Part shown: in pieces, positions 599 through 4,030 of the stretch
Position numbering within the stretch: the stretch's first letter is position 1
Layout of the letters: each line of letters starts with the position of its first letter
IMG/VR virus record: IMGVR_UViG_2675903505_000004
Source of the DNA: a virus
Lineage: Duplodnaviria; Heunggongvirae; Uroviricota; Caudoviricetes
Strand: one strand, 5' to 3'
Length of the DNA: 4,030 nt
The notes under the pieces: model-generated
Told to the model about the DNA's origin: nothing
Database searches by the model: none
The model's input: the letters and a program-made list of their open reading frames with translations, nothing else
Program-made: the position numbers and the translations under genes

Positions 599-838
599 AA
601 AAGAACAAATGGTAGTGTCCGCTATTGCCAGTACACCTCACAACGCCATCCTGACAAGCGTTTTATCTTCAACGGGAATGAGATATGGAAACGTGGAGAA
701 TCAACCACAGAGTATACCCGCGCACACCAGCGAACAATCAGACGACTGCGCAGACTCATCGCCAGGAAACAGTATACAGAAAAATGGTTCAGAAAATATG
801 ACACATGGAGCGCCGGATATTACGAACTGATGGCAACA
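599..838 (+). pseudogene. Possible 3' remnant of a truncated gene (79 codons, no start codon), basic C-terminal tail
   Basis: Frame +2 is open from just after the transposase-fragment stop (596-598) to TGA 836-838 and encodes ...NGNEIWKRGESTTEYTRAHQRTIRRLRRLIARKQYTEKWFRKYDTWSAGYYELMATKPF with no internal Met until the last few codons. Protein-like composition but no family recognised. Confidence 0.2.
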
Positions 839-910
839 AAACCATTCTGACGTAAACGAAATTAACCATGACGCAATTAAATAAGGCAAGCCGAATACAT
901 CAGGAGGACC

Positions 911-1099
911 ATGAACATTTATTTCAGAATAGTTATATCACTGGCAATTATCGCATGTATTTACGGATTAATCGTTCCGGCCCTCATATCAATGAAGGAT
1001 ACGGTAGCAGTGATTTCTGGCTTTGCTCTGGCGTGTCTGACCCCGCCCTGCATTTATGCCATTTATAAGGGTCTTTCTTTTTCTAAGGATAAAAGATGA
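911..1099 (+). CDS. Small membrane protein, 62 aa, two predicted TM helices with basic C-terminus
   Basis: SD-like AGGAGG at 903-908 then ATG 911. Two hydrophobic segments (RIVISLAIIACIYGLIVPALI and VAVISGFALACLTPPCIYAIY) separated by a short polar loop. Stop TGA 1097-1099 overlaps the next gene's ATG (ATGA at 1096-1099). Confidence 0.55.
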   Translation: MNIYFRIVISLAIIACIYGLIVPALISMKDTVAVISGFALACLTPPCIYAIYKGLSFSKDKR

Positions 1100-1923
1100 A
1101 AAAAGTTATTCCTGCTTTAGCCCTTGTTCTGCTGACCACCGGACTTGTCGGTTGCGATCGCGTTGAGCCTGGTAATGTTGGCATCAAGGTAAACAAACTG
1201 GGCGACGATAAAGGCGTCGGAGAAGTGGTCGGTGTTGGGCGCTACTGGACGGGATGGAACACTGAGGTTTACATCTTCCCGACCTTCAAACAAATGAAGA
1301 CCTACGATGAGCCATTCAGCTTCCAGATGAGTGACGGTACAACCATCGGCTATCACATCGGCGTGGCCTACAAAGTTGATCCATCCAAAGTTACCACAGT
1401 CTTTCAGACCTACCGCAAAGGCGTGGACGACATTACCGACACCGACCTGCGCCAGAAGATAGCCGACGCACTCAACCGACTGGCCAGCAAAATGACCACC
1501 GACAAATTTATCGACGGCGGCAAGTCTGAGCTGCTGGATGCAGCTCTTAAAGACATTCAGGAAGAAATGACGCCCATCGGTATTCAGGTAATGAGCCTCT
1601 CATATGTGGGTAAGCCGGAGTACCCGCCTACTGTTATCGACAGCATTAATGCCAAAGTCACGGCGAACCAGAAAACCCTGCAATGCGAGCAGGAAGTAAA
1701 ACAGCGCGAAGCGGAAGCCAACATGTTGCGCGCGGAAGCTGCCGGACAGGCAGATGCGATTCGCACAAAAGCCCAGGCCGAAGCCGATGCTATTCGTTTA
1801 CGCGGTGAAGCTCTGCGCCAGAACCCAAACGTTATGGAGCTGGAAGCCATCAACAAGTGGAACGGTACACTGCCGCAATACATGACCAGCGGTGCCAACA
1901 CACCATTTATTCAGGTTAAGTAA
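1096..1923 (+). CDS. SPFH/band-7 (prohibitin/HflC-like) domain lipoprotein, 275 aa, predicted inner-membrane-anchored and periplasm-facing
   Basis: N-terminus MKKVIPALALVLLTTGLVGC is a signal peptide with lipobox LVGC; the residue after the Cys is Asp (CDRVEP), the classic inner-membrane retention signal. The body has an SPFH-like core followed by an Ala/Glu/Arg-rich coiled coil (REAEANMLRAEAAGQADAIRTKAQAEADAIRLRGEA) as in HflC/HflK/prohibitin C-termini. SD AAGGA at 1085-1089. Confidence 0.8.
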   Translation: MKKVIPALALVLLTTGLVGCDRVEPGNVGIKVNKLGDDKGVGEVVGVGRYWTGWNTEVYIFPTFKQMKTYDEPFSFQMSDGTTIGYHIGVAYKVDPSKVTTVFQTYRKGVDDITDTDLRQKIADALNRLASKMTTDKFIDGGKSELLDAALKDIQEEMTPIGIQVMSLSYVGKPEYPPTVIDSINAKVTANQKTLQCEQEVKQREAEANMLRAEAAGQADAIRTKAQAEADAIRLRGEALRQNPNVMELEAINKWNGTLPQYMTSGANTPFIQVK

Positions 1924-1930
1924 TACATAT

Positions 1931-1951
1931 GCCCGGTATTACACGCCGGGC
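1931..1951 (+). promoter_or_regulatory. GC-rich stem-loop in the SPFH to ORF6N intergenic region (6-bp stem GCCCGG/CCGGGC, 9-nt loop)
   Basis: Inverted repeat at 1931-1936 and 1946-1951 read directly from the sequence. It is not followed by a T-run, so it is more likely an RNA processing or stability element, or a partial attenuator, than an intrinsic terminator. Confidence 0.3.
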
Positions 1952-1966
1952 TGTCTGGAGATAAAA

Positions 1967-2716
1967 ATGAATACTGTAACCATCAACAACAAACAGTTTC
2001 CGGTAATCGAATATCGCGGTCAGCGTGTTGTGACGCTGGCGATGATTGATGAAGTCCACCAGCGACCGGAAGGAACCGCGCGTGCAGCATTCAACCGAAA
2101 CCGTGAGCATTTCATCAGCGGTGTGGATTATGCCGAATTAGGTGCGGACGTAATACGTACGGACCTCCCGGAAGGAACATTCTCTAAATTTGCACCATCG
2201 GGGATTGTACTTTTTGAATCAGGTTACCTGATGTTGACGAAGCCATTCAATGACGCCCTTGCCTGGCAGGTTCAGCGCGAACTGGTTAACAGCTACTTCC
2301 GCACTCGCACACCGCTAACGGAAATCGAGATGATCGCTGCGATAGCCGCCGACGCTGTTCGTCAACAGAAGCGCCTGAATCATGTGGAAGAACAGCTCGA
2401 AACAGTCACAGAAGCGGTGGAAACCATCAAACGCGGAAATATGCGCGCCGGATATGTCGGTTACCGCCAGGTGGTAGCCAAAAGTGGAATGAGTGACACC
2501 AAGTGTCGGAATCTGGTGAACGCATATCAAATTCCTACAGACACCCACGAATTCATGACTCCGGACGGTCTGTTGTCTCGCAGGGCTATCGTCGAGCTTG
2601 AGCCATTTATGGCGGCGTTCCACCAAATGATGTCAGAGGCTGACCCACGCGGCACACGCTGGTATCACCCGAAGATGGGGCTTTTCCAGGTGATCGGATG
2701 GGAGGATAAAGCATGA
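1967..2716 (+). CDS. ORF6N/KilA-N-like DNA-binding domain protein (phage antirepressor-like N-domain) with coiled-coil middle and uncharacterised C-terminal domain, 249 aa
   Basis: Start chosen at ATG 1967 (GGAG at 1957-1960, 6-nt spacer) rather than the upstream in-frame ATG 1892 that overlaps the SPFH gene. N-terminus MNTVTINNKQFPVIEYRGQRVVTLAMIDEVHQRPEGTARAAFNRNREHFISGVDYAEL fits the ORF6N/KilA-N pattern. Stop TGA 2714-2716 overlaps the next ATG 2713 (ATGA). Confidence 0.65.
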   Translation: MNTVTINNKQFPVIEYRGQRVVTLAMIDEVHQRPEGTARAAFNRNREHFISGVDYAELGADVIRTDLPEGTFSKFAPSGIVLFESGYLMLTKPFNDALAWQVQRELVNSYFRTRTPLTEIEMIAAIAADAVRQQKRLNHVEEQLETVTEAVETIKRGNMRAGYVGYRQVVAKSGMSDTKCRNLVNAYQIPTDTHEFMTPDGLLSRRAIVELEPFMAAFHQMMSEADPRGTRWYHPKMGLFQVIGWEDKA

Positions 2717-3282
2717 TCATCCAGTCAAAACTTATTCGCGCCGCTCTGGTGTGCGCTGCTAAAAACGACGTTCGTTATTACCTGAACGGTCTTCACATCA
2801 CGCCGAAACATATTGAGGCAACCAATGGTTCCGTGGCACTGCGCATGGCTCACGGCATCCGGACGAAGAAAAACATCATTGTCCAGTTCGAAGGGGGCGT
2901 CCCGGCCAAAGCCGAAACGACAGAGCTGATTTTTAGTAAAGAGCCGATCGCTGTTCATCGCGACCAGTTTCAGCGACGACTGTCCATTACCGGCATTAAA
3001 CTGGTGGACGGTTGTTTTCCGGATTTGGATCGCATCATTCCGAAAAAGTTTGACCGCTGTACTCACCCGGTGCTCCAGGCGGGTTACCTGAGTTATCCAG
3101 AGAAGATGTTTGGTCGTGAGCGTAAATTTATTCCCGTCCAGTTACGTCCCTCCGGTGACGGGCAAGCGGTCAGAATTCAGTTTGATTCCATCATCAACTC
3201 AATGTATGGCAATCCTGAATTTGTTGTGATGCCTTGTCGTGATCATGGCGATTTCAACGTGGCTCAGGAGCATCCGGAATGA
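2713..3282 (+). CDS. DNA polymerase III beta sliding clamp (DnaN) domain II-III-like protein; truncated clamp homolog lacking domain I, 189 aa
   Basis: Three blocks align with E. coli DnaN as recalled: AKNDVRYYLNGLHI vs AHQDVRYYLNGMLF (domain II), IKLVDGCFPDLDRIIPKK vs SKLVDGRFPDYRRVLPKN (domain II/III junction), and EFVVMPCR vs AYVVMPMRL (extreme C-terminus). The domain III equivalent is shortened. Own SD GGAGGA at 2701-2706. Stop TGA 3280-3282 overlaps the next ATG 3279. Confidence 0.65.
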   Translation: MIIQSKLIRAALVCAAKNDVRYYLNGLHITPKHIEATNGSVALRMAHGIRTKKNIIVQFEGGVPAKAETTELIFSKEPIAVHRDQFQRRLSITGIKLVDGCFPDLDRIIPKKFDRCTHPVLQAGYLSYPEKMFGRERKFIPVQLRPSGDGQAVRIQFDSIINSMYGNPEFVVMPCRDHGDFNVAQEHPE

Positions 3283-3401
3283 AAATCGAATACCAGGACG
3301 CCGCAGGAGGTGAATCAATGAGCTGGCCTGATGCAATCGTAACTCTGGGGATGGTATTCGCAGTAGCGTTTGTTGTGTACTCGATTTGTCGATGGGGATA
3401 A
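3279..3401 (+). CDS. Tiny single-TM membrane peptide (40 aa from ATG 3279; alternative start ATG 3318 gives 27 aa)
   Basis: Not in the supplied ORF track (too short). Translation MKIEYQDAAGGESMSWPDAIVTLGMVFAVAFVVYSICRWG, stop TAA 3399-3401. ATG 3279 is ATGA-coupled to the clamp-like gene with AGGAG at 3266-3270; the internal ATG 3318 is preceded by a strong AGGAGG at 3305-3310. Hydrophobic core LGMVFAVAFVVYSI. Confidence 0.3.
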   Translation: MKIEYQDAAGGESMSWPDAIVTLGMVFAVAFVVYSICRWG

Positions 3402-3405
3402 CCAC

Positions 3406-3648
3406 ATGTTCGCTTTGATTCAACGCGGGCAGATATACACAGACAGAGCCGGATACCCAGTAGAAATTACTCGCAGTACTGAGCACTCAGTGTTCTTTCG
3501 GAGGATGGACGGACGTACCGGGCGAGTACGCATCGGTGAATTCAGTAGCCTGTTCGAGCATATTGACCACCTGGAATATCACAAGATTCTGGCTGAAACA
3601 GAACAAGAAAAGCACCTGAAGAAATTACGCGCAATGCAAAGGAAGTAA
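3406..3648 (+). CDS. Small phage-type protein, DUF4222-like, 80 aa
   Basis: Start ATG 3406 (MFALIQRGQIYTDRAGYPVEITRSTEHSVFFRRMDGRTGRVRIGEFSSLFEHID...) preferred over the track's ATG 3370, which would overlap the upstream peptide. The spacing of YxDxxG, V.IT, V.F.RR and GEF...F resembles DUF4222 proteins from lambdoid prophages as I recall them. Stop TAA 3646-3648. Confidence 0.45.
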   Translation: MFALIQRGQIYTDRAGYPVEITRSTEHSVFFRRMDGRTGRVRIGEFSSLFEHIDHLEYHKILAETEQEKHLKKLRAMQRK

Positions 3649-3806: not shown

Positions 3807-4004
3807 ATGGGCAATGTGATTCAACTGGCTCCCAATGAATGGGTTTGTGAAAGCGTTCTAATCGCAATTACCGGGCTCAAACCAGGCACAATTCTTCGGA
3901 CCCGGAAAGAATGCTGGATGGTTGGAAGAGAGTATATTCACGTATCACCAGACGGTAATCCAAAGCCTTCTGAAGTGGTCAACAAAAACTGGCCACCGAG
4001 TTAG
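3807..4004 (+). CDS. Excisionase-like (phage Xis/DUF1233-like) protein, 3' end disrupted by IS911-like insertion; chimeric ORF whose last 10 codons and stop are IS-derived
   Basis: SD GAGG at 3797-3800 then ATG 3807. Translation MGNVIQLAPNEWVCESVLIAITGLKPGTILRTRKECWMVGREYIHVSPDGNPKPS resembles excisionase-like small DNA-binding proteins of lambdoid prophages (recalled motif TGLKPGTI...RK.CWM.GREY.H..PDGNPKP). From codon 3972 onward the reading frame lies inside the IS inverted repeat (EVVNKNWPPS, then stop). Confidence 0.5.
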   Translation: MGNVIQLAPNEWVCESVLIAITGLKPGTILRTRKECWMVGREYIHVSPDGNPKPSEVVNKNWPPS

Positions 4005-4006
4005 AG
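3971..4006 (-). repeat. IS911-like terminal inverted repeat (IRR), 36 bp
   Basis: 24 of 36 positions identical to the revcomp of 114-149, including the terminal TGAAGTGG and the GGCCACC core. Confidence 0.75.
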
Positions 4007-4030
4007 TTTTTCCAGTATCGATTTTCCGAT
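3971..4030 (-). mobile_element. IS911-like (IS3 family) insertion sequence, partial: IRR end; element body continues beyond window end
   Basis: 3971-4006 reads TGAAGTGGTCAACAAAAACTGGCCACCGAGTTAGAG, the imperfect inverted-repeat partner of the element end at 114-149. The outer tip is at 3971 and the body extends rightward, so the element is in the same (minus) orientation as the left copy. Confidence 0.75.

Follow-up and report, generated by a model that had tools for sequence, protein, structure and literature searches.

A coupled gene pair for an SPFH lipoprotein and a small membrane protein

The stretch of DNA analysed here, hereafter the window, is a 4,030-nucleotide (nt) piece of a Caudoviricetes virus record (IMG/VR IMGVR_UViG_2675903505_000004). 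On its plus strand lie two overlapping genes: a small open reading frame (ORF) of 62 amino acids (aa) at 911–1099, predicted to encode a two-helix inner-membrane protein like gp19 of coliphage N4 (PHROG 1130), and a 275-aa gene at 1096–1923, whose predicted product is an SPFH/Band-7 lipoprotein like N4 gp20 (PHROG 200). The start codon of the second gene (ATG, 1096–1098) sits on the stop codon of the first (TGA, 1097–1099), and the resulting ATGA (1096–1099) is a signature of translational coupling. Inspection of the sequence located a Shine-Dalgarno-like AGGAGG (902–907) 3 nt 5′ of the ATG of the small ORF and a second one, AAGGA (1085–1089), serving the SPFH gene from within the 3′ end of the small ORF. 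The ORF list and the sequence thus agree with a preliminary description of this DNA, which had reported a 62-aa protein with two transmembrane (TM) helices and a 275-aa protein joined by an ATGA overlap.

Two sets of related loci are used below. The close set comprises 80 loci from IMG/VR with SPFH proteins of at least 79% identity. A first IMG/VR scan and protein-word searches returned almost only close relatives (at least 63–75% identity), and diversity was drawn from GenBank phage matches and from three scans seeded with distant members; the diverse set holds 147 loci retrieved with Pseudomonas-, Vibrio- and crAss-type queries, its counts being approximate because two queries retrieved a few of the same contigs. 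In 78 of the 80 close loci a two-helix ORF of 58–83 aa ends at the start of the SPFH gene, and the 4-nt ATGA overlap is present in most of them as well as in BcepF1, IG49 and Pacha_bin_1. Both genes are under purifying selection, with a ratio of nonsynonymous to synonymous substitution rates (dN/dS) of 0.02–0.05 for the SPFH gene and 0.11–0.28 for the small gene. Because these ratios are low, because the cysteine at residue 20 of the larger protein is invariant and because a two-TM ORF precedes the SPFH gene so regularly, the ORFs at 911–1099 and 1096–1923 are a genuine gene pair and not chance ORFs. Two further observations concern the DNA of the pair. A GC-rich hairpin, GCCCGG-N9-CCGGGC, lies directly 3′ of the SPFH stop codon (1930–1950); we do not call it a terminator because it lacks a T-run. 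Also, compared with the locus of IMGVR_UViG_648276671_000019, whose protein is 99% identical, the small gene has no synonymous differences and the SPFH gene has a dS of 0.28, which indicates a recombination breakpoint within or at the edge of the module.

The 275-aa protein begins with MKKVIPALALVLLTTGLVGC-DR, that is, with a positively charged n-region, a hydrophobic h-region and the lipobox LVGC, in which Cys20 is followed by Asp21. This MKK-hydrophobic-LVGC20 arrangement conforms to the lipobox pattern [LVI][ASTVI][GAS]C. Sequence and alignments place a lipoprotein signal peptide at 1096–1155, with the lipobox at aa 17–20 and Cys20 (nt 1153–1155) as the predicted lipidated first mature residue; the sorting positions +2 (Asp) and +3 (Arg) follow at 1156–1161. 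Cys20 is conserved in all 13 diverse proteins of one alignment (A1) and in all 25 closer homologues of another (A2). The PHROG family matched by the protein (PHROG 200, E 6.4e-114) carries the annotation 'lipoprotein'.

Behind the cysteine, Pfam and the structural model delimit an SPFH (Band_7) domain at aa 22–208 (1159–1719). The Pfam Band_7 profile (PF01145) aligns with residues 22–208 over positions 2–176 of 176, with an E-value of 6.3e-31 and 108.2 bits against a cut-off of 23.6. The single-chain AlphaFold2 model, with a predicted local distance difference test score (pLDDT) of 78.7, shows the SPFH alpha/beta region (residues 19–175), a 65-residue helix (178–242) and a short helix. The long helix (1627–1821), defined by DSSP on this model and by structural alignments, is rich in Ala and Glu and is the counterpart of the coiled-coil wall in SPFH cages. 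The C-terminal segment that follows (aa 243–275, 1822–1920) is a candidate cap or oligomerisation element: its pLDDT as a monomer is low (below 50 at residues 249–275), and it carries the conserved motifs K-W-N-G-x-L-P (aa 254–260) and P-F-[IV]-x-V, in which W255, G257 and P260 are invariant. Foldseek searches of the PDB place HflK/HflC (7VHQ, 7WI3, 9CZ2) at the top, over the full length and with E ~4e-14, followed by prohibitin, erlin, stomatin, flotillin, QmcA-YbbJ and the major vault protein; the probability is 1.00 for HflK/C, prohibitin, erlin, stomatin and flotillin, at sequence identities to the structural matches of 12–18%. The protein is therefore a bona fide member of the SPFH superfamily, and the earlier assignment of this domain is borne out by both profile and fold.

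It is not, however, an HflK or HflC orthologue. The NCBIfam models for these proteins (TIGR01933, TIGR01932, NF008181 and NF008259) give 15–24 bits against cut-offs of 134–660 (22–24 bits where the HflK/HflC equivalog cut-offs are 134–159), NCBIfam matches to HflK, HflC and FloT were sub-threshold only, and every related locus that we inspected carries a single SPFH gene; the low scores and the single gene together argue against orthology. The likeness to the HflK/HflC-FtsH complex (PDB 7WI3, 7VHP/7VHQ, 9CZ2) lies in the SPFH domain, the long helix, the C-terminal segment and the predicted placement of the domain against the periplasmic face of the membrane. The differences are that HflK and HflC are held by an N-terminal TM helix and measure 419 and 334 aa, whereas the phage protein has a lipid anchor and 275 aa, and that a K/C pair is replaced by one SPFH gene with a dedicated two-TM partner. 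In GenBank the SPFH lipoprotein is widely labelled 'serine protease' or 'putative serine protease' (phiP27 AJ298298, Stx2 phages LC5678xx and others), a label that looks inherited from old HflC annotations; the small gene upstream is unannotated in the phiP27 and Stx2-phage records.

The 62-aa protein matches PHROG 1130 (E 6.6e-24), annotated 'membrane protein' and filed in the category 'moron, auxiliary metabolic gene and host takeover'. Its hydrophobic stretches cover residues 1–29 and 32–48 (Kyte-Doolittle, window 17). Hydropathy and the family alignment together predict a first TM helix at aa 3–22 (IYFRIVISLAIIACIYGLIV, 917–976) and a second one at aa 32–52 (1004–1066) with an invariant Gly37, and the alignment places between them the loop PALISMKDT (aa 23–31, 977–1003). 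The C-terminal tail KGLSFSKDKR (aa 53–62, 1067–1096) is basic, Lys/Arg-rich tails being found family-wide, and is predicted to be cytoplasmic; by the positive-inside rule, this tail is the reason for which the loop is placed in the periplasm. The loop follows the family motif [LV]-P-x-[LM]-[IVL]-S-x-x-[DN]-[TS], which also recurs in independent matches of the hidden Markov model (HMM) described below, and among 19 diverse small proteins conservation is at least 90% at P23 and S27 and complete at G37, where helix 2 starts.

The small protein has no Pfam match at E≤0.01. Its family forms 34 clusters at 50% identity, every one of 36–91 aa. At E≤1, 19 members of it matched 46 Pfam families overall, and the listed 25 with the most frequent matches do not include NfeD. 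The pair was rightly described before as lacking a canonical NfeD partner. It resembles the SPFH-NfeD operons (QmcA-YbbJ, PDB 8Z5G; YqiK-YqiJ; archaeal stomatin-STOPP) in that the SPFH gene adjoins a co-oriented gene for a small multi-helix membrane protein. Nevertheless, the phage partner has neither an NfeD/OB-fold nor a ClpP-like domain, and since the defining domain is missing the pair is not an SPFH-NfeD operon. A further difference is that QmcA and YqiK face the cytoplasm, whereas the phage SPFH protein is predicted to be exported.

Distribution of the pair among phages

Judged by sequence, the window pair is a copy of the coliphage N4 gp19/gp20 family (PHROG 1130 plus PHROG 200). The two N4 genes overlap by 8 nt and encode a membrane protein of 68 aa (gp19) and a lipoprotein of 278 aa (gp20), the latter sharing 63% identity with the 275-aa protein of the window; the record of Shigella virus Moo19 labels its own pair 'similar to phage N4 gp19' and 'similar to phage N4 gp20'. 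The two modules share homologous proteins, the two-TM hairpin, the loop motif, the gene order and strand, an overlapping stop and start and the lipobox cysteine. They differ in the residues behind the cysteine (Tyr+2/Asp+3 in N4), in the length of the overlap (8 nt in N4 and 4 nt in the window) and in their bearers, a lytic podophage in one case and a decayed lambdoid prophage in the other.

A tblastn search with the SPFH protein found relatives in 491 GenBank phage records. The order of small gene and then SPFH gene is seen in lambdoid, P2-like and P1-like phages, and likewise in phages counted here as obligately lytic (N4-like, Vequintavirinae, Pseudomonas, Burkholderia, Vibrio, Rhizobium, jumbo and crAss-like). 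By the taxonomy lines of their records, lytic carriers include N4 and Moo19 (Schitoviridae), SSE121 (Vequintavirinae), an Erwinia Kolesnikvirus (Ounavirinae) and Caulobacter CcrSwift (Dolichocephalovirinae, phiCbK-like); other carriers are 45-kb Pseudomonas podophages, which we take to be LUZ24-like and lytic, Burkholderia BcepF1, the Salmonella jumbo phage PHA46 and the crAss-like phage cr128_1. What had been regarded as an unusual SPFH operon architecture is consequently the standard arrangement of a phage family, repeated in hundreds of genomes.

How constant is the partnership? Within the close set at least five types of small protein, with 17–30% mutual identity, are paired with SPFH proteins at least 79% identical. 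For the diverse set, an HMM of the small protein was built from 13 diverse sequences and run on all 10,205 six-frame ORFs of 35–200 codons (E≤1e-3). It gave 116 matches in the 147 loci, of which 115 lie on the same strand upstream of the SPFH gene, one lies downstream and none is on the opposite strand; among the upstream matches 93 end within 60 nt of the SPFH start and 21 lie at 60–1500 nt. Owing to this bias in strand and position, the matches are not generic hydrophobic ORFs. Partners were also recovered in loci outside the HMM seed, namely SSE121 gp211 (7e-15, with one intervening gene), an ORF of PUTH1 (2e-6) and an ORF of cr128_1 (1e-4).

The cr128_1 ORF is an unannotated two-helix frame of ~66 aa (~945–1145 of our locus L017, NC_055885.1 ~10924–11124) that overlaps the SPFH start by 8 nt. 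The same arrangement is found in 57 of 77 crAss-type IMG/VR loci, and this recurrence implies that the partner gene is missing from the annotations of crAss-like phages. The sole locus with an HMM match just downstream of the SPFH gene (L106, 3232–3510) has it at a contig end, where a second module or a rearrangement is possible. A 347-aa protein cluster (P0002, eight member sequences) was considered as a natural fusion of the two genes and set aside: it reads through the 20-nt overlap of the P1-like type and is probably a frameshift or annotation artefact.

In temperate phages the pair occupies lytic-phase positions: the pL-side arm in lambdoid phages, the interval between cox and a replication gene in P2-like P88, where it stands among early genes (presumably the Pe operon), and the stretch between dmt and ban in P1-like phage-plasmids. 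Canonical P1 carries plp/upl/tciABC in that stretch, which there lies downstream of the C1-controlled Pban. Presence of the module is patchy, and canonical P1 has no pair. An identification of the pair with P1 Plp/Upl proved wrong, since canonical P1 Plp has 125 aa and is encoded on the other strand; P1-like variants hold the SPFH pair in the same variable region. Among complete E. coli genomes, 716 of 5426 (~13%) gave a megablast match, and 390 of the places matched are on plasmids, including P1-like records.

The gene family itself is already catalogued, as N4 gp19/gp20 and in the PHROGs. As a variety of SPFH system it combines a phage-specific, lipid-anchored SPFH protein, predicted to be exported, with a mini-partner that is not NfeD. 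In the literature we found no paper describing the conserved pairing or any function for it.

Setting and decay of the copy in the window

Intact relatives of the locus (the E. coli E110019 prophage, phiP27 and Fraca) carry on one strand, in this order, the repressor, small early genes, the small ORF, the SPFH gene, an ORF6N gene, xis and int; the locus is the pL-side early-left arm of a lambdoid phage. In the window this arm is framed by insertion sequences (IS). The end of an IS911-like element with the start of orfA occupies 1–168 on the minus strand (terminal inverted repeat ~120–168), and the C-terminus of an IS3-family transposase, 87 codons with Pfam rve_3/rve_2 matches, lies at 335–598 in an element that ends at ~640. 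Homology to the intact E110019 prophage runs from nt 640 to 3454 and so starts next to the IS remnants. Downstream of the SPFH gene come an ORF6N antirepressor-type gene, a 189-aa ORF, a 40-aa ORF, a DUF4222 gene, a 48-aa ORF and a DUF1233 excisionase ORF of 65 aa (3807–4030), whose 3′ end gives way at ~3975 to the inverted repeat of a further IS3-family element.

Two of these neighbours deserve a remark of their own. The 189-aa ORF (2713–3282), conserved in related prophages, gives weak matches to the central domain of the DNA polymerase III beta clamp (Pfam 0.007; TIGR00663 1e-4; PHROG 'processivity factor' 2e-4). Its best PHROG, 3007 (6e-65), is labelled 'RusA-like resolvase', probably a mislabel, and the product may be a half-size clamp-like protein. 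The 40-aa ORF (3279–3401), with one hydrophobic helix, overlaps the stop codon of the 189-aa ORF by an ATGA; it is annotated in E110019 and called in some source assemblies only.

An identical 275-aa protein is encoded by a prophage remnant at yecE-yecN-cmoA-cmoB, from which the repressor and replication region and the integrase have been lost and in which Q and RusA lie inverted upstream, and the junction between IS and prophage is found in Shigella flexneri. A scan of 550–2100 for sigma-70-like promoters found none, and the four terminator-like matches in the same interval are all on the minus strand and do not exceed the expectation from shuffled sequence. The pair in the window thus has both genes whole yet no longer adjoins the upstream operon to which it belongs; stranded in an IS-decayed prophage of Shigella flexneri type, it may be poorly expressed or silent. 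That it is an inert passenger, two intact ORFs deprived of their native promoter by the decay of the prophage, is a serious possibility to which we give somewhat less than even weight. The lost regions, the inverted Q/RusA, the cut excisionase ORF, the IS junction shared with Shigella flexneri and the missing promoter all speak for it; against it, neither the ORFs nor their ribosome-binding sites are damaged, outward promoters can come from IS ends, and the exact 275-aa protein is present in 2576 blocks of the assembly index, a number for which clonality alone may account.

Membrane placement and possible roles

Which membrane would carry the lipoprotein? As the SPFH domain begins two residues past the lipidated cysteine, with no tether, it must lie on whichever membrane holds the lipid. 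We consider an inner-membrane site facing the periplasm likely on sequence grounds, because the enterobacterial copies have Asp at +2, because the predicted partner is an inner-membrane protein with a loop of nine residues, and because variants exist in which a plain hydrophobic helix takes the place of the lipobox. Asp-Arg at +2/+3 is found in all 80 enterobacterial relatives, and Asp+2 also in BcepF1. In about nine N-terminal variants the lipobox cysteine is missing and such a helix immediately precedes the SPFH domain, six of them with the partner kept, so that lipid anchor and N-terminal helix appear interchangeable in the family. In the Cys-less IMG/VR loci (L114, L121, L122, L129, L130, L146, L149, L157 and L166) this helix may serve either as a TM anchor or as a signal peptide for SPase I. 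With an SPFH domain this close to the cysteine and an inner-membrane partner whose periplasmic loop is short, the HflK/C-like topology proposed in the preliminary description is plausible.

A model of the module can be built on this placement. The upstream gene would provide a ~60-aa inner-membrane hairpin with both termini in the cytoplasm and the conserved loop P-x-L-I-S-x-x-D-T towards the periplasm, and the coupled downstream gene a lipoprotein whose SPFH domain would lie flat against the inner membrane, on its periplasmic leaflet. The long helix and the C-terminal motif most probably let the lipoprotein oligomerise into a closed ring or cage, since structurally solved relatives with the same domain layout do so (HflK/C, prohibitin, erlin, stomatin, flotillin and QmcA). 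The small protein may act as the membrane-embedded partner, standing in for the NfeD protein of cellular SPFH operons. The module would be switched on alongside the early or middle genes of the lytic cycle and would not be a lysogen-specific moron, and the assembly would most likely fence off or sequester an inner-membrane client during infection. To our knowledge HflK/C is the only characterised bacterial SPFH cage that faces the periplasm, and it encloses an FtsH-type protease; prohibitin, its mitochondrial counterpart, does the same. By analogy with these two, an FtsH-type AAA protease is the leading candidate for the client, and as far as we know FtsH is present in all host phyla of the carriers; alternatively, the assembly might block the entry of superinfecting DNA. 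On balance we judge it probable, by a modest degree, that the N4 gp19/gp20-type module is an inner-membrane SPFH cage on the periplasmic face that acts in lytic growth.

Several points weigh against this cage model. The inner-membrane location, the formation of a cage, the contact with the partner and the client are all things that we infer, and FtsH is suggested by general knowledge of SPFH cages and by nothing specific to this protein. In 32 of the 147 diverse loci the HMM found no partner, and HflK is the only sequence match in the PDB, a marginal one (E 3e-4, 16–18% identity). The sorting signal is a further point. A strong Lol-avoidance signal in E. coli consists of Asp+2 without adjacent basic residues (PMC6469965), and the Arg+3 found here is accordingly predicted to weaken retention. 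Alignments indicate, moreover, that Asp+2 is not a feature of the whole family: N4 has Tyr-Asp at +2/+3, and other members have Ser-Lys, Glu-Arg, Gly-Tyr and more. The earlier proposal of inner-membrane retention by Asp+2 therefore stands as far as the lipobox and the Asp residue are concerned, but not as regards the strength of the signal or its generality. As these pairs vary and sorting rules outside the Enterobacteriaceae are unclear, part of the family may be placed in the outer membrane, and AxA-like sites in some Cys-less variants make cleaved, soluble periplasmic proteins possible. Also, the literature on phage SPFH proteins that we found consists of genome-annotation remarks and includes no functional study of any family member; a paper of June 2026 states that the reason for the presence of the gene in an N4-like phage 'remains unclear' (PMC13239085).

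What else might the pair do? Superinfection exclusion, in which the hairpin and a periplasmic lipoprotein shield would block DNA translocation or other periplasmic steps of a second phage, has precedents in T4 Imm/Sp, HK97 gp15 and the lipoprotein Ltp of TP-J34, which are likewise early accessory phage genes for a small inner-membrane hairpin and/or a periplasmic-side lipoprotein, though with no kinship in sequence or fold and no SPFH domain. The module is accessory, patchy and located in variable early regions, the PHROG class of the small protein includes moron and host-takeover functions, and exclusion by lytic phages would be consistent with early expression. In N4 and Moo19 the pair lies directly 3′ of gp18, a P22 gp17-like 'superinfection exclusion' protein (phrog_1510, 1.8e-51), and in Vi01-like PhiSH19 the SPFH gene adjoins a 'superinfection exclusion protein' (PMC3220722). 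However, this association is positional and confined to two lineages, the lambdoid, P2-like and P1-like copies having no such neighbour. Neither protein, nor any of the neighbours, matched a defence family of PADLOC-DB v2 (E≤0.01), known exclusion proteins are far smaller than a cage-type protein of 275 aa, and conservation from Enterobacteria to crAss-like phages favours a generic host target over a phage-specific defence. We hold exclusion to be the main alternative to the cage model, though a tentative one and unlikely as matters stand. A role in lysis timing appears improbable. Class II holins are small proteins with two helices and a charged C-terminus, and the small protein, with two TM helices, both termini predicted in the cytoplasm and a basic tail, resembles them; SPFH assemblies organise membrane microdomains and N4 is known for very delayed lysis, so that the lipoprotein could be imagined to restrain or organise a holin- or antiholin-like hairpin, delaying lysis or stabilising the energised membrane. 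Yet the sole holin model matched, Phage_holin_3_6, is sub-threshold and touches two of the 19 family members (best E 0.038), which is inconsistent across the family, no endolysin or spanin adjoins the pair in the loci inspected, where the neighbours are early, regulatory and DNA-metabolism genes, and lambdoid carriers have ordinary lysis cassettes elsewhere.

The preliminary description had favoured an effect on the lysis/lysogeny decision, by a prophage mimic of HflK/C that would tune the degradation of CII/CIII-type regulators by FtsH. HflK is indeed the best structural match besides being the marginal sequence match mentioned above, the predicted periplasmic topology is that of HflK/C, the intact E. 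coli relative has a gene for a CII-like regulator (phrog_4836) in the same arm, and genome papers have speculated on HflC-like lysogeny control (PMC10269572, PMC4936722). The distribution of the family does not fit this proposal: the module occurs in both lytic and temperate phages and is therefore not a lysogeny-specific device, its carriers abound among obligately lytic phages with no lysogeny decision to make (N4-like, Vequintavirinae, Ounavirinae and phiCbK-like), and in temperate phages it sits in early lytic operons; in the window no sigma-70-like promoter of its own was found at 550–2100. Besides, the HflK/HflC equivalog cut-offs are far from being reached, one SPFH gene stands against a K/C pair, and the model is weak because carriers outside Enterobacteria are mostly lytic and the P1- and P2-type switches differ. 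We regard it as very improbable. Only slightly better placed is the proposal that the protein is a lipoprotein of the outer membrane or of vesicles, unrelated to the small protein, which acts as a lysogenic-conversion or virulence factor; we think it highly unlikely. The case for it is PM0222, encoded by a prophage of Pasteurella multocida; among the phage-borne SPFH proteins in the literature found, it alone comes with experimental data. By description it is 'HflK/C-like', and it is reported in outer-membrane vesicles, as a TLR1/2 agonist and with effects on host inflammation and virulence (PMC9872710). Many family members also lack Asp+2, and the retention signal of the window protein is predicted to be weakened by Arg+3. 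An outer-membrane role is hard to square with a coupled inner-membrane partner whose loop has nine residues and with a lipoprotein that has no tether, a conversion role is hard to square with the presence of the pair in lytic phages, and no promoter of its own was found.

Returning to the cage model, a bolder version of it is conceivable, which we put forward as a speculation with a low chance of being right: the module could be a phage-universal host-takeover device, a self-contained SPFH nanocage in the periplasm, for which its own mini TM subunit would be the nucleus and which would be installed early in infection. If this were true, the cage would capture a universal machine of the envelope, for example FtsH or the route of incoming DNA, in phages from N4 to the crAss-like group, and it would represent a new functional class of phage-encoded membrane compartment as well as a minimal, tractable model of client choice by SPFH cages.

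Client choice is still debated for the SPFH cages solved recently (HflK/C, prohibitin, stomatin, flotillin and erlin), and phages carry a stripped-down version consisting of one lipid-anchored subunit and one 60-aa transmembrane partner. The copy in the window is an ordinary family member in a decayed prophage; the family as a whole is an accessible and unexplored system. In model phages (N4, P1-like and lambdoid) this non-essential-looking two-gene module is easily deleted or expressed, and it could reveal what a periplasmic SPFH cage does.

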